Shown here: one piece after another, positions 4,386 to 43,287 of the stretch | How the letters are laid out: each line of letters begins with the position of its first letter | How positions within the stretch are numbered: the stretch's first letter is position 1 | Source: Escherichia coli | GTDB taxonomy: Bacteria; Pseudomonadota; Gammaproteobacteria; Enterobacterales; Enterobacteriaceae | Reading direction: 5' to 3' (one strand) | Assembly: GCF_003334815.1 (NCBI RefSeq) | Contig: NZ_QOWO01000010.1 | DNA: 64,000 bases | Made by a program: the position numbers and the translations under genes | The notes under the pieces: model-generated | What the model saw: the letters and a program-made list of their open reading frames with translations, nothing else | Told to the model about the DNA's origin: nothing | Database searches by the model: none

Positions 4386-6032
4386 TTATTTCACACAGCG
4401 GGTGCATTGTGTGAGTTGTATCTGCTGGAAGAAGTCATTTCCTTTATCATCCACAAGGATAAACGCCGGGAAATCTTCCACTTCAATTTTCCAGATGGCT
4501 TCCATTCCCAGTTCCGGATATTCAACACATTCCAGGCTCTTAATACTTCCCTGCGCCAATACAGCGGCCGGACCACCGATACTGCCAAGGTAGAAGCCGC
4601 CGTGTTTTTTACAGGCATCCGTCACCTGCTGGCTGCGGTTGCCTTTCGCCAGCATGATCATACTTCCGCCCTGCGCTTGCAGTTGATCGACATAAGAATC
4701 CATCCGTCCGGCGGTCGTTGGGCCAAGAGAACCGGAGGCATAACCTTCCGGCGTTTTGGCCGGACCCGCGTAGTAAATCGGATGATCTTTGATGTACTGC
4801 GGCAGCCCTTCACCGTTATCCATCCGCTCTTTCAGTTTGGCGTGAGCAATATCACGACCGACGATAATCGTGCCGTTAAGCGATAAGCGTGTAGAAACGG
4901 GATACTGCGACAACTGTGCGAGGATCTCTTTCATCGGACGGTTAAGGTCAACGCGCACCGCTTCGCCTTCTCCCGCTTTGCGCAGCTCTTCCGGGATATA
5001 TTTGCCTGGATTATGTTCCAGTTTTTCGATCCAGATCCCCTGACGGTTGATCTTCGCTTTGATATTACGGTCAGCAGAGCAGGAGACGCCCATACCGACC
5101 GGGCAGGATGCGCCGTGACGTGGCAGGCGAATCACGCGGATGTCGTGAGCGAAGTATTTACCACCAAACTGCGCACCCAGACCAAGATTTTGCGCTTCGA
5201 TCAGCAATTCTTTTTCCAGTTCCACATCGCGGAACGCCTGACCGTGCTCATTCCCTTCCGTTGGCAGTTCATCATAGTATTTCGCGGAAGCCAGTTTCAC
5301 CGTTTTAAGGTTCGTTTCTGCAGAAGTTCCACCAATAACGAACGCAATATGATACGGAGGACAGGCCGCCGTACCCAGCGTGCGCATCTTCTCAACCAGG
5401 TAATTTTTCAGTTTCCCCGGCGTCAGTAACGCTTTGGTTTCCTGATAGAGATACGTCTTGTTTGCCGAACCACCACCTTTGGCGATACAGAGGAATTTGT
5501 ATTCGTCGCCATCAACGGCATAAAGATCGATCTGCGCTGGCAGATTGGTGCCGGTATTCACTTCTTTATACATATCCAGCGGCGCGTTTTGCGAGTAGCG
5601 CAGATTATCTTCGATATAAGTGTTATAGACACCGCGCGCCAGCGCCGCTTCATCACCACCACCGGTCCATACACGCTGCCCTTTTTTACCAACAATAATC
5701 GCGGTGCCGGTATCCTGACAGGTTGGCAGAACGCCTTTCGCCGCGATGTCGGAGTTACGCAGGAATTGCAGCGCCACATATTTATCATTTTCGCTGGCCT
5801 CCGGGTCACGCAGAATGTCGGCCACCTGTTGTTGGTGCGCCGGACGCAGCATGAACGACGCATCATGAAACGCCTGGCGCGCCAACAGAGTTAACGCTTC
5901 GGGTGCGACTTTCAAAATCTCCTGCCCTTCAAATTCAGATACGCTAACGTGTTCGCTGGTTAGCAGGTAATACTCAGTATCATCTTTTTTGAGTGGAAAA
6001 GGAGCCTGATAATGAAAGGGTTTGTTTGACAT
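4386..6032 (-). CDS. fumA: Fumarate hydratase class I (Fe-S dependent)
   Basis: 548 aa ORF recognised as class I fumarase; sits immediately upstream of fumC on the same strand. Confidence 0.93.
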
Positions 6033-37998: not shown

Positions 37999-38006
37999 AT
38001 AAGTTT

Positions 38007-38034
38007 GCGTGTGGTCAGGTTACTGACCACACGC
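38007..38034. terminator. Hairpin between convergent slyB and slyA
   Basis: GCGTGTGGTCAG-GTTA-CTGACCACACGC. Confidence 0.65.
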
Positions 38035-38044
38035 CCCCTTCATT

Positions 38045-38485
38045 TCACCCTTTGGCCTGTAACTCAATGATATTATGCTCAAGTTTTGCGATGAGCGTAA
38101 TCAGTTGCTCCAGTTCCTCTGCGGAGATGCCATGTAATATTTCCGCGCGGGTTTTGTTAATAACAGCTTCCATTTCGCTGATCAGCGGCTCTGCCTTTTC
38201 CGTCAGTTTAATACGTTTAGCCCGACGATCGCTGGCACAAGTTTGACGCGAAATTAACCCTTTTTCTTCCAGTTGGTCCAGAGTACGGACCAGTGATGGC
38301 TGCTCGATGCCAATCGCTTTTGCCAGTTGAATTTGCGACTGGTCTGGAGGTAACTGATGGATATTGTGTAACGTAACCCAATGGGTTTGTGTTAACTCCA
38401 GCGGTTTCAGGCGATGGTCTATCAGAGCACGCCATATGCGCACCAACCGTGCCAGATCAGAACCTAGTGGCGATTCCAATTTCAT
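38045..38485 (-). CDS. slyA: MarR-family transcriptional regulator SlyA
   Basis: Winged-helix MarR ORF; ATG at 38485 gives 146 aa, but the 144-aa form I recall would start at the TTG two codons downstream (38479). Confidence 0.9.
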
Positions 38486-38679
38486 CTCCTTATAATTAGC
38501 TTGCTAAGATATTATGCGGCTTTTAGAATAGTGTGCAGCAATTGTATTGCTAAAACAAATGTATTGCTGCATTTGGTTACCGTCAGACATATTTTTCAGA
38601 AATTGCGCGTAAATTTTTCGCACTTAAAGAATATTTATTAATCTAACGCAATATATTCGGTCGTAAAGGAATCTACTTT

Positions 38680-38916
38680 GTGAAGTTTATGCTCAATGCA
38701 ACAGGATTGCCCTTACAAGATCTGGTGTTCGGTGCGTCCGTCTACTTTCCTCCGTTTTTCAAAGCATTCGCGTTTGGATTCGTCATCTGGCTTGTCGTAC
38801 ACCGCCTGCTTCGTGGCTGGATCTACGCCGGTGACATCTGGCATCCCTTGTTAATGGATTTATCGCTGTTTGCGATTTGCGTTTGCCTTGCTCTGGCAAT
38901 ACTGATTGCGTGGTAA
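38680..38916 (+). CDS. ydhI: Small inner-membrane protein YdhI (DUF1656)
   Basis: 78 aa, two predicted TM helices; first gene of ydhIJK. Confidence 0.8.
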
Positions 38917-38918
38917 CT

Positions 38919-39776
38919 ATGTCAATTAAAACAATTAAGTATTTCTCAACAATCATTGTAGCGGTAGTTGCGGTTCTTGCCGGATGGTGGCTGTGGAATT
39001 ATTACATGCAATCTCCGTGGACACGCGACGGGAAAATACGCGCAGAACAGGTTTCTATCACCCCACAGGTGTCGGGACGTATTGTTGAGCTGAATATAAA
39101 AGACAACCAGCTGGTTAACGCGGGGGATCTTCTGCTCACGATCGATAAAACGCCCTTTCAGATCGCCGAGCTGAACGCACAGGCTCAGCTGGCGAAAGCG
39201 CAATCTGACCTCGCAAAAGCCAATAACGAAGCGAATCGTCGTCGTCATCTCTCACAAAATTTTATTTCTGCCGAAGAACTCGATACCGCTAACCTCAATG
39301 TTAAAGCGATGCAGGCCAGTGTTGATGCCGCACAGGCGACGCTGAAACAGGCACAATGGCAACTGGCGCAAACGGAAATTCGCGCCCCGGTGAGTGGATG
39401 GGTGACTAACCTTACTACCCGCATCGGCGATTACGCTGATACCGGGAAACCGCTGTTTGCCCTTGTCGACAGCCACTCGTTTTACGTCATTGGTTATTTT
39501 GAAGAAACCAAGTTGCGCCATATCCGCGAAGGTGCACCAGCACAAATTACCCTCTATAGTGATAACAAAACGTTACAGGGTCACGTTTCCAGTATCGGTC
39601 GGGCGATTTATGATCAGAGCGTTGAAAGTGACTCAAGCCTTATTCCGGATGTTAAACCTAACGTCCCCTGGGTTCGACTCGCCCAACGCGTTCCCGTCCG
39701 CTTTGCGCTGGATAAAGTCCCAGGCGATGTCACGTTGGTGTCGGGCACCACCTGTAGCATTGCCGTAGGTCAATAA
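38919..39776 (+). CDS. ydhJ: HlyD-family membrane fusion protein YdhJ
   Basis: 285 aa from MSIKTIKYF; N-terminal anchor plus coiled-coil/biotinyl-like region; track ORF has upstream extension. Confidence 0.85.
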
Positions 39777-41788
39777 TGAACGCATCGTCATGGTCCTTGC
39801 GCAATTTGCCCTGGTTCAGGGCCACGCTGGCGCAATGGCGTTATGCGTTACGCAATACCATTGCCATGTGTCTGGCGCTGACGGTTGCCTATTATTTAAA
39901 TCTGGATGAACCCTATTGGGCGATGACCTCGGCTGCAGTGGTTAGCTTTCCCACCGTTGGCGGTGTTATCAGCAAAAGCCTCGGACGCATCGCTGGCAGT
40001 TTGCTCGGAGCCATTGCGGCACTGCTTCTTGCCGGGCATACGCTCAATGAGCCGTGGTTTTTTCTATTGAGCATGTCGGCGTGGCTTGGCTTTTGTACCT
40101 GGGCCTGTGCGCACTTCACGAATAACGTCGCGTATGCATTTCAACTGGCGGGCTACACGGCTGCCATCATCGCCTTTCCGATGGTTAATATTACTGAGGC
40201 CAGCCAGCTGTGGGATATCGCTCAGGCGCGCGTTTGCGAGGTAATAGTCGGTATTTTGTGCGGCGGCATGATGATGATGATCCTGCCGAGCAGTTCCGAT
40301 GCTACTGCCCTTTTAACCGCATTGAAAAACATGCACGCCCGATTACTGGAACATGCCAGTTTACTCTGGCAGCCTGAAACAACCGATGCCATTCGTGCAG
40401 CACATGAAGGGGTGATTGGGCAGATACTGACCATGAATTTGCTGCGTATCCAGGCTTTCTGGAGCCACTATCGTTTTCGCCAGCAAAACGCGCGCCTTAA
40501 TGCGCTGCTCCACCAGCAATTACGTATGACCAGTGTCATCTCCAGCCTGCGACGTATGTTGCTCAACTGGCCCTCACCGCCAGGTGCCACACGAGAAATT
40601 CTCGAACAGTTGCTGACGGCGCTCGCCAGTTCGCAAACAGATGTTTACACCGTCGCACGTATTATCGCCCCGCTACGCCCGACCAACGTCGCCGACTATC
40701 GGCACGTCGCCTTCTGGCAGCGACTACGTTATTTTTGCCGCCTTTATCTGCAAAGTAGTCAGGAATTACATCGTCTGCAAAGCGGTGTAGATGATCATAC
40801 CAGACTCCCACGGACATCCGGCCTGGCTCGTCATACCGATAACGCCGAAGCTATGTGGAGCGGGCTGCGTACATTTTGTACGTTGATGATGATTGGCGCA
40901 TGGAGTATTGCTTCGCAATGGGATGCCGGTGCCAATGCATTAACGCTGGCAGCAATTAGCTGCGTACTCTACTCCGCCGTCGCAGCACCGTTTAAGTCGT
41001 TGTCACTTCTGATGCGCACGCTGGTGTTACTTTCGCTATTCAGCTTTGTGGTCAAATTTGGTCTGATGGTCCAGATTAGCGATCTGTGGCAATTTTTACT
41101 GTTTCTCTTTCCACTGCTGGCGACAATGCAGCTTCTTAAATTGCAGATGCCAAAATTTGCCGCATTGTGGGGGCAACTGATTGTTTTTATGGGTTCTTTT
41201 ATCGCTGTCACTAATCCCCCGGTGTATGATTTTGCTGATTTTCTTAACGATAATCTGGCAAAAATCGTTGGCGTCGCGTTGGCGTGGTTAGCGTTCGCCA
41301 TTCTGCGTCCAGGATCGGATGCTCGTAAAAGCCGCCGCCATATTCGCGCGCTGCGCCGGGATTTTGTCGATCAGCTAAGCCGCCATCCAACACTGAGTGA
41401 AAGCGAATTTGAATCGCTCACTTATCATCACGTCAGTCAGTTGAGTAACAGCCAGGATGCGCTGGCTCGCCGTTGGTTATTACGCTGGGGTGTAGTGCTG
41501 CTGAACTGTTCTCATGTTGTCTGGCAATTGCGCGACTGGGAATCGCGTTCCGATCCGTTATCGCGAGTACGGGATAACTGTATTTCACTGTTGCGGGGAG
41601 TGATGAGTGAGCGTGGCGTTCAGCAAAAATCACTGGCGGCCACACTTGAAGAATTACAGCGGATTTGCGACAGCCTTGCCCGTCATCATCAACCTGCCGC
41701 CCGTGAGCTGGCGGCAATTGTCTGGCGGCTGTACTGCTCGCTTTCGCAACTTGAGCAAGCACCACCGCAAGGTACGCTGGCCTCTTAA
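39776..41788 (+). CDS. ydhK: Fusaric-acid-resistance/AaeB-like putative efflux permease YdhK
   Basis: 670 aa with two hydrophobic blocks separated by a soluble region; start overlaps ydhJ stop. Confidence 0.85.
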
Positions 41789-42310
41789 TTACTTAATTAC
41801 ACCACAGGCATAGCGTTCACCGCCACCGCCCAGCGGTTTAGGTTGATCGGACATATTATCGCCGCCAACGTGGACCATCAGCGCTTTGTCTTTGATTTCA
41901 TCCAGTGATTTCAGACGAGGCGCGATGACGGCATCGGTAGCTTTGCCGTCATTATTGACGACCAGTGCAGGCAGATCGCCTAAATGCCCGGCACCTTCTG
42001 GCCCTTCATGTTTACCGGTATTTTGTGGATCAAGATGCCCGCCTGCGGATTCCGCGGCGCTGGCTTTGCCATCTTTGGTGGCTGGCTGGCAGCTTCCTTT
42101 GGCATGAATATGGAAGCCATGTTCACCGGGGGGTAATGCTTTCAGATCGGGCGAAAACTCCAGACCTTTATCGGTTTCAGTAATGGTGACGCTACCAATT
42201 GACTGCCCTACCCCTTGCGACGTGACGAGGTTCATCTCGACTTTTTCACTGGCAGCTTGTGCGCCGGTTGCAACAACCAGCGCCAGAATAGCCAGACTAA
42301 AACGTTTCAT
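41789..42310 (-). CDS. sodC: Periplasmic Cu,Zn superoxide dismutase
   Basis: 173 aa from MKRFSLAILALVVATGAQA (signal peptide); Cu/Zn SOD His ligands (HGFHIH). Confidence 0.93.
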   Translation of the reverse strand: MKRFSLAILALVVATGAQAASEKVEMNLVTSQGVGQSIGSVTITETDKGLEFSPDLKALPPGEHGFHIHAKGSCQPATKDGKASAAESAGGHLDPQNTGKHEGPEGAGHLGDLPALVVNNDGKATDAVIAPRLKSLDEIKDKALMVHVGGDNMSDQPKPLGGGGERYACGVIK

Positions 42311-42390
42311 AGGACCTCCGTTCATTGTGCATTCCTGAATAAGTGTAAACCAGTGACACATTTTTGAACGGCGGCTATTCCTAAAAGTGC

Positions 42391-43287
42391 TTACGGTACG
42401 TCGTACCCCAGTGCCGCTTTACGGATACGAAACCATTGTTGACGGGTCATTTTCAGTGTTTCTGCTTCGACAGCTGCCCGTACGCGCTCAATTTTACCTG
42501 AACCGATAATTGGCAGCGGCTGCGATGGTAAACGTAATACCCAGGCGTAAACCACCTGTTCAATCGAGCCCGCGTTTAACTCCTCTGCCACCACAGCCAG
42601 TTCATCACGCAGCGGCTGGAAATAATCATCATTAAACAGACGACCACCACCAAGGCAGGACCACGCCATCGGACGAACACGCAGTTGTTGTAGTTGGTCG
42701 AGCGTGCCATCCAGCAGTAACGGCTGATGCACCGGGGATATTTCCACCTGATTAGTGGCAAGGGTAAACGGCAGACGTGATTGCAACAGGGCAAATTGCG
42801 CAGGCGTAAAGTTCGATACGCCAAAATGACGCACTTTGCCGCTCTGATGCAGATGTTTGAACGCGTCCGCCACTTCATCGGCATCCATTAACGGGTCTGG
42901 TCGGTGGATTAACAGCAAATCCAGATGATCGGTCGCGAGATTAATTAGCGACTGTTCGGCGCTCTTAATGATGTGATCGCGGTCAGTGATGTAATGACCA
43001 ATGACGTTTTCTTCACGCGCGGTCGTCGCGATACCGCATTTACTGACGATTTCCATCCGTTCACGCAGGTGAGGTGCCAGTTTCAGTGCCTCGCCAAACG
43101 CCGCTTCGCACTGATAGCCACCATAAATATCAGCATGGTCCACGGTGGTCACGCCGAGATCCAGATGCTCTTCAATAAAACTGACCAGCTGGCGGGCGGA
43201 CATATTCCAGTCCATCAATCGCCAGTAGCCCATCACAAAACGGGAAAACTCCGGGCCTTGCGGCGCAATAGTAATACGCTGAACCAT
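42391..43287 (-). CDS. ydhF: Aldo-keto reductase family oxidoreductase YdhF
   Basis: 298 aa ORF, AKR fold. Confidence 0.88.
   Translation of the reverse strand: MVQRITIAPQGPEFSRFVMGYWRLMDWNMSARQLVSFIEEHLDLGVTTVDHADIYGGYQCEAAFGEALKLAPHLRERMEIVSKCGIATTAREENVIGHYITDRDHIIKSAEQSLINLATDHLDLLLIHRPDPLMDADEVADAFKHLHQSGKVRHFGVSNFTPAQFALLQSRLPFTLATNQVEISPVHQPLLLDGTLDQLQQLRVRPMAWSCLGGGRLFNDDYFQPLRDELAVVAEELNAGSIEQVVYAWVLRLPSQPLPIIGSGKIERVRAAVEAETLKMTRQQWFRIRKAALGYDVP

Follow-up and report, generated by a model that had tools for sequence, protein, structure and literature searches.

What do the three genes that diverge from slyA in Escherichia coli export, and which signals call for their expression? 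In the stretch of 64,000 nucleotides of E. coli DNA analysed here (the window), the interval 38680-41788 had been read from its letters as a putative efflux module, with slyA as the obvious candidate for its regulator. The interval coincides base for base with ydhI-ydhJ-ydhK (b1643-b1645) in the RefSeq annotation of MG1655, and its DNA is 100% identical to that of MG1655. ydhIJK is an annotated and partly studied operon of E. coli K-12, so the original prediction was correct and its observation ordinary; the efflux reading and the guess at SlyA are both supported, and both were in print beforehand. The genes, the protein families, the analogy to AaeXAB, the binding and regulation by SlyA and a fusaric acid phenotype are all found in databases and papers, to which the present analysis adds little.

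Layout and relatives of the operon

The genes concerned are the following.

38680-38916, plus strand: ydhI, 78-residue DUF1656 membrane protein (GTG start; Pfam DUF1656, 1.8e-14)
38919-39776, plus strand: ydhJ, 285-residue AaeA/EmrA-type periplasmic adaptor (membrane fusion protein), by Pfam, NCBIfam and AF2
39776-41788, plus strand: ydhK, 670-residue inner-membrane FUSC/ArAE permease (FUSC PF04632, predicted ALMT-like fold)
38045-38485, minus strand: slyA, divergent MarR-family regulator gene (RefSeq start TTG at 38479, in-frame ATG at 38485)

All three ydh reading frames (3 of 3) lie on the same strand. They had been described as joined by overlapping stop and start codons, which is true of ydhJ and ydhK, where one base is common to both (TAATG), and not of ydhI and ydhJ, which do not overlap since 2 nt separate the ydhI stop codon (TAA, 38914-38916) from the ydhJ ATG at 38919. 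Scans of 38300-42400 for sigma-70 promoters and for intrinsic terminators gave matches that were not above shuffled expectation; neither element is claimed. The operon is present in every complete genome of E. coli that was compared (5,426). In some E. coli genomes ydhJ or ydhK is interrupted by IS insertions (hits H1-H3).

The DUF1656-MFP-FUSC triad, adjacent and co-oriented, is present in the window and in the related loci L004, L005, L006, L007 and L009, and it is retained at YdhK identities of 62% (L006), 50% (L007 and L009) and 28% (L004, in which the DUF1656 member is an uncalled open reading frame at 4906-5106). In L005 the same cluster also carries a gene for an outer-membrane factor and a MarR gene.

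The closest point of reference is AaeXAB (YhcRQP) of E. coli. As the original prediction had it, the order ydhI-ydhJ-ydhK mirrors aaeX-aaeA-aaeB, with the same protein families and with a divergent regulator gene upstream in each case. YdhJ is 41% identical to AaeA (E 5e-68), YdhK 24% identical to AaeB over 521 residues (E 1e-27) and YdhI 33% identical to AaeX over 51 residues (E 1e-5). Against the equivalog models of AaeXAB (NF007916, NF007850 and NF008615), YdhK scores 120.3 for AaeB with a cut-off of 870, YdhJ 243.4 for AaeA with a cut-off of 400, and YdhI 21.4 for AaeX with a cut-off of 82. Orthology to AaeXAB was rejected for all three proteins, and since the scores lie far below the cut-offs the two systems are paralogs. 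They also differ in detail: the aaeXAB genes are separated by gaps of 7 and 5 nt and do not overlap, in contrast to the 2-nt gap and 1-nt overlap of ydhIJK; the regulator is the LysR-type AaeR there and the MarR-type SlyA here; ydhIJK has an additional sigma-E input; and the substrates, aromatic carboxylic acids for AaeXAB, may differ.

YdhK and the fold of anion channels

How would the permease move its substrate? YdhK matches FUSC PF04632 over practically the full length of the model (5.4e-140, residues 20-661, model positions 1-658 of 660) and is classified as TC 2.A.85.1.6 (PMC10971958), which together with the paralogy to AaeB bears out its description as a 670-residue permease of the AaeB/fusaric acid resistance type. 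The AF2 model is confident (pLDDT 94), and it was used to place the transmembrane helices because Kyte-Doolittle hydropathy at a threshold of 1.5 called too few of them in the N-terminal half. YdhK contains two tandem copies of a unit that consists of a transmembrane domain and a cytoplasmic helical domain: the helix pattern of the model repeats, and hhalign aligns the profiles of the N- and C-terminal halves with probabilities of 95.6-97.1% (E 1e-8 to 1e-10). The duplication is detectable by profiles and not by single sequences, BLASTP of one half against the other yielding nothing significant (best E 0.1).

About half of YdhK aligns to one protomer of the plant ALMT anion channels, and at the profile level homology to ALMT1 is found with 5.5e-8. 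Judged by this model, YdhK is a fused pseudo-dimer of the ALMT fold, and the structural comparison thus sustains its assignment as a FUSC/ALMT-fold permease. The kinship is one of clan and fold level only: Pfam ALMT (PF11744) gives no match in YdhK at E <= 10, a sequence search of the PDB with YdhK alone retrieved only GmALMT12 at E 0.4, and the PDB copy searched held no solved structure of a FUSC/ArAE pump. R71 in TM3 and R152 in TM6, nearly invariant among 86 homologs, align with R80 and R165 of ALMT1; the pair is found in the N-terminal half and is absent from the C-terminal half. YdhK thus shares with the plant ALMTs (AtALMT1, AtALMT9, GmALMT12) and with the mycobacterial FUSC protein Rv2571c the fold of each half, the TM3 and TM6 pore arginines and homology at profile level. 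Rv2571c is reported to export alpha-ketoglutarate as an ALMT-like channel, with an essential arginine in TM6 (10.64898/2026.03.10.710584). The ALMTs and Rv2571c assemble as homodimers from half-size chains, whereas YdhK would be an asymmetric pseudo-dimer fused into one chain; unlike them, it also has a periplasmic adaptor and a DUF1656 protein as partners.

YdhJ and YdhI

That YdhJ is a membrane fusion protein of the HlyD type, as had been proposed, is confirmed by its Pfam domains (HlyD_D23, CusB_dom_1, Biotin_lipoyl_2 and HlyD_3) and by its NCBIfam matches, of which AaeA ranks first (2.8e-72) and MdtN second. Hydropathy locates one N-terminal hydrophobic segment at residues 8-26, and the AF2 model (pLDDT 81.7) consists of a helix at 3-31, lipoyl strands, the hairpin helices 78-109 and 118-150, and a beta-barrel that extends to residue 283. 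YdhJ thereby has the lipoyl, alpha-hairpin and beta-barrel domains of adaptors in tripartite pumps. Foldseek with the model matched the TolC-docking adaptors EmrA, MacA and AcrA, the closest solved structure being EmrA in EmrAB-TolC (8zar, E 9e-22). This match and the pseudo-dimeric ALMT fold of YdhK were first seen in this analysis, although neither is novel. Like EmrA, YdhJ has an N-terminal transmembrane anchor, its model being devoid of a membrane-proximal domain, and in both systems a MarR-family regulator (MprA in the case of emrAB) is linked to the pump genes. The systems differ in the inner-membrane partner, which is an MFS transporter for EmrA and a FUSC protein in ydhIJK, and EmrA is some 100 residues longer than YdhJ and has a longer hairpin.

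Between slyA and sodC no gene of the OEP family (outer-membrane factor) was found, so that the operon itself encodes none. In this respect it departs from FuaABC of Stenotrophomonas maltophilia, fusABCDE of Burkholderia cepacia and MdtNOP of E. coli, which likewise combine a FUSC inner-membrane protein with an MFP but have the gene for the outer-membrane factor within the operon (FuaC, FusA and MdtP, respectively). Fusaric acid is a substrate of FuaABC and of Fus. FuaABC is furthermore controlled by an AraC-type regulator, FuaR, and the gene upstream in mdtNOP is ytcA and not a DUF1656 gene.

The small product of ydhI had been taken for a DUF1656 protein with two transmembrane segments, in agreement with the Pfam match and with two hydrophobic segments at residues 26-44 and 58-76. 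AaeX is the only NCBIfam match of YdhI, and a sequence search of the PDB with YdhI returned no match. The W-H-P-x-L motif does not vary among 4 homologs, and neither does one proline of the FPP motif. DUF1656 genes show cofitness with genes for MFP and FUSC proteins (Price 2016), and YdhI is likely an accessory subunit of the pump.

Control by SlyA and sigma-E

What controls the operon? Three elements in the region between slyA and ydhI are pertinent.

38496-38507, no strand assigned: SlyA box 1, TTAGCAAGCTAA (minus-strand reading), exact match to the published consensus, adjoining the slyA start
38635-38646, no strand assigned: SlyA box 2, TTATTAATCTAA (of the form TTAN6TAA), 34-45 nt ahead of the start codon of ydhI
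38620-38646, plus strand: candidate sigma-E promoter, GCACTT-16 nt-TCTAA, one mismatch to GAACTT-N16-TCTAA

The divergent gene product passes the NCBIfam SlyA equivalog cut-off with 277.4 bits (cut-off 120), and slyA and ydhI accordingly combine a divergent MarR gene with a site in the shared intergenic region. Box 1 is the sole exact match to the consensus in the 64-kb window, is exactly kept in L006, the ortholog locus with 62% identity, and appears among the PslyA sites in Table 3 of Curran 2017 (PMC5797941); box 2 is the reverse complement of TTAGATTAATAA, a site listed in the same table. The suspected role of SlyA is borne out by published experiments. Mapping of the primers of Curran 2017 onto the window places the fragment shifted in their SlyA EMSA at exactly 38480-38679 (PMC5797941), and for Salmonella SlyA an approximately 19-fold repression of ydhI was found in vitro, which was relieved by 2 mM salicylate (Will et al., 2019, PMC6401476).

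On the sign of regulation, the published data for the two species disagree. Salmonella Typhimurium has the orthologous operon with a divergent slyA (Will et al., 2019, 2025), and SlyA represses there, whereas the single expression result in print for E. coli K-12, from an array, has ydhIJK increased 2.2-fold upon SlyA overproduction (Curran 2017, PMC5797941), which reads as mild activation and thus as the opposite of the Salmonella repression. The slyA-ydhI intergenic region differs between E. coli and Salmonella (Will et al., 2019, PMC6401476), and that of L006 has likewise diverged from that of E. coli. A survey of how slyA and ydhJK are linked across genomes was published by Will et al. (2019, PMC6401476).

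A second input comes from the envelope-stress sigma factor. PydhIJK is counted among the known sigma-E start sites, and its RNA increases about 20-fold on sigma-E induction (PMC7075262). The sigma-E regulon takes in ydhJ and ydhK; ydhI is absent from the main text of Rhodius 2006. The motif at 38620-38646 is our candidate position for the promoter, placed there from sequence; the motif matches twice in the window for 0.64 matches expected, a count that 15 of 100 shuffled sequences reach or exceed and that is therefore not strong statistically, and it is without evident conservation in L006. Since the -10 element and the spacer of this candidate overlap SlyA box 2, SlyA bound at box 2 might repress by occluding the sigma-E promoter.

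Function and alternative explanations

What, then, is the function of YdhIJK? The original prediction suggested exposing a deletion strain to aromatic carboxylic acids, and such an experiment is on record for Salmonella, where growth in 30 µg/ml fusaric acid is delayed by loss of ydhIJK and growth in fusaric acid is improved by mutation of slyA (Will et al., 2019, PMC6401476). The effect of fusaric acid in Salmonella is a growth delay and not a shift in MIC. In our assessment YdhIJK, a FUSC/ArAE (PET, TC 2.A.85) system and a paralog of AaeXAB, very probably exports the carboxylate anions of organic acids, probably of aromatic ones. The statement that the substrate is not evident from the sequence holds, the physiological function being still to be determined according to Will et al. 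(2025, PMC12506092).

The following mechanism can be proposed. In the inner membrane, YdhK would form a pseudo-dimer of the ALMT fold from one chain and could bind the carboxylate in its central pathway through R71 (TM3) and R152 (TM6) of its N-terminal half. Because the cell interior is negative, anions in an ALMT-like pore are driven outward by the membrane potential, which may energise export. The word pump may be a misnomer, because the ALMT relatives are channels and not coupled pumps. YdhJ, anchored by one transmembrane helix, would contribute a sleeve in the periplasm, built from the lipoyl, hairpin and barrel domains and most likely docked onto an outer-membrane channel encoded elsewhere, for which TolC is the obvious candidate, and YdhI may join as a membrane accessory subunit with two segments. 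SlyA binds the 200-bp slyA-ydhI intergenic region, from which salicylate and other aromatic carboxylates would release it, and sigma-E is the second input for expression. The ALMT fold and the conserved arginines make R71 and R152 targets for mutagenesis.

The strongest alternative, which has an appreciable chance although we would not bet on it, is that YdhIJK serves an endogenous carboxylate, as a metabolic relief valve or as an anion channel, the fusaric acid phenotype being a side activity. The substrate might be an aromatic intermediate that doubles as the SlyA ligand, or an acid of central metabolism as with the mycobacterial FUSC channel. Will et al. (2025) favour export of some endogenous compound as the likelier primary function (PMC12506092), and the fold and pore arginines of YdhK as well as the alpha-ketoglutarate export by Rv2571c point in the same direction. 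Viability falls on overexpression of ydhK, which would fit leakage of metabolites or dissipation of the potential, and ydhK transposon mutants emerged as candidate fitness genes in systemic infection by UPEC, where fusaric acid is not expected. However, no endogenous substrate has been named to date, a mere channel that opens into the periplasm would hardly need a periplasmic adaptor, and AaeAB, the closest characterised paralog, also exports externally supplied aromatic carboxylates (PMC12506092). Since the substrate and the purpose alone would change, this alternative refines the carboxylate exporter and does not contradict it.

A bolder proposal, which we regard as possible but rather doubtful, makes YdhK an exporter of the channel type and not a proton-coupled pump: as a fused, asymmetric ALMT-like pseudo-dimer with one arginine pair, it would let a carboxylate anion pass down the membrane potential, and it would be linked to TolC via YdhJ. 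The physiological substrate would be an aromatic carboxylate of endogenous origin that is also the SlyA ligand, so that pump and regulator would together make up a homeostatic circuit coupled to envelope stress through sigma-E. If true, FUSC systems would constitute a mechanistically distinct class of channel-based tripartite exporters. The ALMT fold and the conserved arginines raise the idea that FUSC exporters of the tripartite kind may conduct anions along the membrane potential and not act as antiporters.

An improbable alternative is a role in envelope homeostasis under sigma-E stress, in which a lipid- or fatty-acid-like amphiphile would be cleared from the inner membrane or the periplasm. 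It would account for the membership of ydhIJK in the sigma-E regulon with its strong induction (PMC7075262) and for the octanoate and acetate phenotypes of related DUF1656/MFP/FUSC systems (Price 2016), but sigma-E-linked death and lysis were unchanged in a quadruple-locus mutant lacking htrG, ydhJ, ydhK, yaiW and smpA, the arginine pair and the ALMT fold indicate small anions, and the direct, MarR-type regulator answers to aromatic carboxylates (PMC6401476).

We give just as little credence to the suggestion that the operon is cryptic in E. coli K-12, a remnant that is being lost and idle under normal conditions. ydhIJK has repeatedly and independently been lost across the Enterobacteriaceae (Will et al., 2019, PMC6401476), some E. 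coli genomes carry the IS insertions in ydhJ or ydhK, a phenotype in K-12 has not been published, and YdhK is listed as 'uncharacterised' in tables based on TCDB (PMC10971958). However, of the 5,426 complete genomes of E. coli, 5,410 cover at least 80% of the 3.9-kb query at one place with at least 95% identity, all reading frames in the window are intact, sigma-E induces the operon (PMC7075262), and ydhK is among the fitness candidates of UPEC.

Finally, import of carboxylates, which the utilisation phenotypes of related systems on 4-hydroxybenzoate and octanoate could indicate, uptake and efflux being indistinguishable for these systems (Price 2016), is most improbable. It was rejected because the phenotype in Salmonella has the wrong direction, as loss of ydhIJK raises sensitivity to fusaric acid and derepression in the slyA mutant helps growth, the opposite of what toxin import would bring about (PMC6401476), while adaptors of the YdhJ type are known from exporters and anion flow through an ALMT-like pore is expected to be outward.

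Organization of ydhIJK and its relationship to AaeXAB

Three open reading frames (ORF list, 36.5-44 kb) make up the operon:

38680-38916, plus strand, ydhI, GTG start, 78 aa
38919-39776, plus strand, ydhJ, annotated ATG, 285 aa
39776-41788, plus strand, ydhK, 670 aa

A TTG at 38877 opens a longer version of the ydhJ ORF. The RefSeq annotation places ydhI, ydhJ and ydhK (b1643-b1645) at exactly the same coordinates, with slyB and slyA upstream and sodC, ydhF and ydhL downstream. When 38000-41900 was searched by megablast against the full set of complete E. coli genomes (n = 5,426), every one of them contained the region, with 100% identity in K-12 MG1655; at least 80% of the query lay at a single place in 5,410 genomes, and in the remaining 16 no one place covered that much. 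Since ORFs, megablast and RefSeq coordinates coincide, ydhIJK is real, intact and located at 38680-41788, as originally predicted. The overlapping stop and start codons also ascribed to the operon are found at the ydhJ/ydhK junction (TAATG, one base common to stop and start) but not between ydhI and ydhJ, where the TAA at 38914-38916 is followed by 2 nt and then the ATG at 38919. The aaeX/aaeA/aaeB junctions differ from both, having gaps of 7 and 5 nt. In NZ_CP091756.1, NZ_CM128543.1 and NZ_CP025048.1 (38919-41788), IS3-family or ISApl1 insertions lie under the match and ydhJ is annotated in pieces; ydhJK is reportedly named in a paper about ISApl1 mobility (PMC5404521).

YdhI matches DUF1656 (1.8e-14) and has two hydrophobic segments; its only NCBIfam match is AaeX, under the cut-off. 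YdhJ contains HlyD and barrel-sandwich/lipoyl domains, and its best NCBIfam matches are AaeA (2.8e-72), MdtN and EmrA/EmrK. FUSC (PF04632) covers YdhK end to end (5.4e-140), and AaeB is its only NCBIfam match (8.8e-35, 120 bits versus a cut-off of 870). Direct comparison with the aaeXAB products of NC_000913.3 gave 33% identity over 51 aa for AaeX and YdhI (E 1e-5), 41% for AaeA and YdhJ (E 5e-68) and 24% over 521 aa for AaeB and YdhK (E 1e-27). Because direct comparisons and NCBIfam matches alike pair YdhI with AaeX, YdhJ with AaeA and YdhK with AaeB, the proposed analogy to this aromatic carboxylic acid exporter is correct; as none of the three proteins reaches its curated equivalog cut-off, the relationship, judged by sequence, is one of paralogy.

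Conservation of the DUF1656-MFP-FUSC module

Searching 1.84 billion representative proteins with HMMER yielded 3,092 relatives at E <= 0.001, of which 217 reach E <= 1e-30. The same module, with its membrane fusion protein (MFP), occurs on contigs encoding representative YdhK relatives (identity in brackets):

L006 (62%): slyA-like MarR gene, DUF1656, MFP, FUSC, then gloA, rnt, grxD
L007 and L009 (50%): DUF1656, MFP, FUSC
L004 (28%): DUF1656 ORF at 4906-5106, plus strand, then MFP and FUSC
L005 (more distant relative): one cluster of outer-membrane factor (OEP), MarR, FUSC, DUF1656, MFP

A W-H-P-x-L motif and one proline in an FPP motif are invariant in the four DUF1656 proteins compared. Cofitness had earlier led Price et al. 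(10.1101/072470) to assign DUF1656 to MFP+FUSC efflux systems as one of their components, with YdhI and AaeX named. The L004 ORF just 5' of the MFP gene (66 aa, YFPPF and VWHPAL motifs) was missed by the source's gene caller, and annotation probably overlooks other small DUF1656 partners of FUSC pumps as well.

Predicted structures of YdhK and YdhJ

What fold does YdhK adopt? No solved FUSC/ArAE structure in the PDB is detectable by sequence. The structure prediction and comparison proposed earlier were run with AlphaFold2, on an alignment of 86 diverse full-length homologs, and Foldseek, and an ALMT fold was found. The model is confident (pLDDT 94, pTM 0.92), and in the PDB only the plant anion channels ALMT1 and ALMT9 reach probability 1.00, each over about 370-400 columns or roughly half of YdhK, all other matches staying at <=0.16. 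ALMT1 also matches the FUSC family profile of YdhK in sequence (5.5e-8). Since profiles of the N- and C-terminal halves of the family alignment match each other at 95.6-97.1% probability, YdhK is a tandem duplication, the single-chain equivalent of the ALMT homodimer. Near-invariant residues of the 86-member alignment, among them K67, R71 and R152, cluster in the N-terminal half, and R71 and R152 align with ALMT1 R80 and R165 in the profile alignment. The pseudo-dimer is asymmetric, because the C-terminal half has an aspartate rather than an arginine at the R152-equivalent position. We infer from homology that R71 and R152 line a central pathway. ALMT fold and arginine pair together provide a concrete mechanistic hypothesis, and a comparable argument from structure has recently appeared for a second bacterial FUSC protein: mycobacterial Rv2571c is presented as a homodimeric, ALMT-like channel and alpha-ketoglutarate exporter, whose retained TM6 arginine is intolerant of mutation (2026 preprint, 10.64898/2026.03.10.710584).

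The YdhJ model, built on 7 sequences only (pLDDT 81.7), has an N-terminal TM helix (3-31) followed by lipoyl strands, then a hairpin whose two helices (78-109 and 118-150) are each about 32 residues long, and a beta-barrel extending to residue 283; a membrane-proximal domain is missing. Among solved structures, EmrA of the EmrAB-TolC complex (8zar, E 9e-22) matches best, followed by MacA and AcrA from TolC complexes. Since an outer-membrane factor gene is absent from the ydhIJK operon, recruitment of TolC as outer-membrane channel would be the most economical model.

Function

Exposure of a deletion mutant to an aromatic carboxylate, another experiment proposed earlier, has been published for Salmonella: in 30 ug/ml fusaric acid ydhIJK and slyA ydhIJK mutants show a growth delay and a slyA mutant grows better (Will 2019, PMC6401476). 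The interpretation as an efflux module is supported, and the finding is already known. Overexpression of ydhK lowers viability (PMC2685091), ydhK insertion mutants were among the candidates for reduced fitness in systemic infection by UPEC (PMC3855560), and ydhK is listed as uncharacterised TC 2.A.85.1.6 in a 2024 transporter survey (PMC10971958). Will 2025 points out the AaeAB homology and leaves the physiological function to be determined (PMC12506092).

Regulation by SlyA and sigma-E

The suggested SlyA EMSA also exists, on essentially the same fragment: E. coli SlyA shifts the 200 bp between slyA and ydhI (Curran et al. 2017, PMC5797941), the primers mapping to 38480-38502 and 38659-38679. 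Table 3 of that study gives two candidate sites:

38496-38507, SlyA box 1, near the slyA start, TTAGCAAGCTAA, matched exactly nowhere else in the window
38635-38646, SlyA box 2, near the ydhI start, TTAGATTAATAA, read on the other strand

SlyA overproduction in E. coli raised ydhIJK 2.2-fold on arrays (Curran 2017, PMC5797941). In Salmonella, repression of ydhI by SlyA in vitro is about 19-fold, falling to 3.2-fold with 2 mM salicylate (Will 2019, PMC6401476), and RNA-seq confirmed repression (Will 2025, PMC12506092). Linkage of slyA and ydhJK is about 100% in the Escherichia/Salmonella cluster and repeatedly lost elsewhere (Will 2019, PMC6401476). The RefSeq start of slyA (minus strand) is TTG 38479 (144 aa), with an in-frame ATG two codons upstream at 38485 (146 aa); against the 146-aa form, the SlyA profile of NCBIfam aligns from residue 3 onward.

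Known sigma-E start sites include PydhIJK, with RNA up about 20-fold upon sigma-E induction (PMC7075262), and ydhJ and ydhK have been handled as sigma-E regulon genes (PMC2685091). GCACTT-N16-TCTAA at 38620-38646, one mismatch from the sigma-E consensus, is a candidate promoter, weakly supported statistically since 15 of 100 shuffles reach the pattern match count. SlyA box 2 overlaps both the -10 element and the spacer of this candidate, which suggests that SlyA may repress by promoter occlusion. Between 1208-1420 of the ortholog locus L006 and 38470-38700 of the window, SlyA box 1 (TTAGCTTGCTAA) is identical, as are the bases flanking it; the ydhI-proximal intergenic half, which holds SlyA box 2 and the sigma-E-like motif, has diverged and is not recognisably conserved, in agreement with Will 2019 (PMC6401476). 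A second one-mismatch match to GAACTT-N16-TCTAA lies at 58220-58246 (plus strand, GACCTT...TCTAA).

The 3' end and other features of the window

The ydhK stop TAA (41786-41788) abuts the stop TTA (41789-41791) of convergent sodC on the minus strand. With zero intergenic bases there is no space for a terminator, and therefore ydhK and sodC transcripts must each end within the other gene; a terminator scan gave nothing above chance, and the pair is an 'excludon' in the ExcludonFinder list (PMC12288877). Matches to the degenerate SlyA motif TTAN6TAA number 24 in the window versus 11.7 expected, a count reached by none of 100 dinucleotide-preserving shuffles. The match at 41785-41796 covers the stop codons of both ydhK and sodC, and TAA/TTA stops together with AT-rich DNA between genes may be all that lies behind the excess. 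The sole Rfam gathering-threshold match in the window is the enterobacterial sRNA STnc550 (55181-55571, minus strand, 396 bits), which largely occupies the gap separating a 389-aa ORF (53849-55018, minus strand) from a 341-aa ORF (55572-56597, plus strand).
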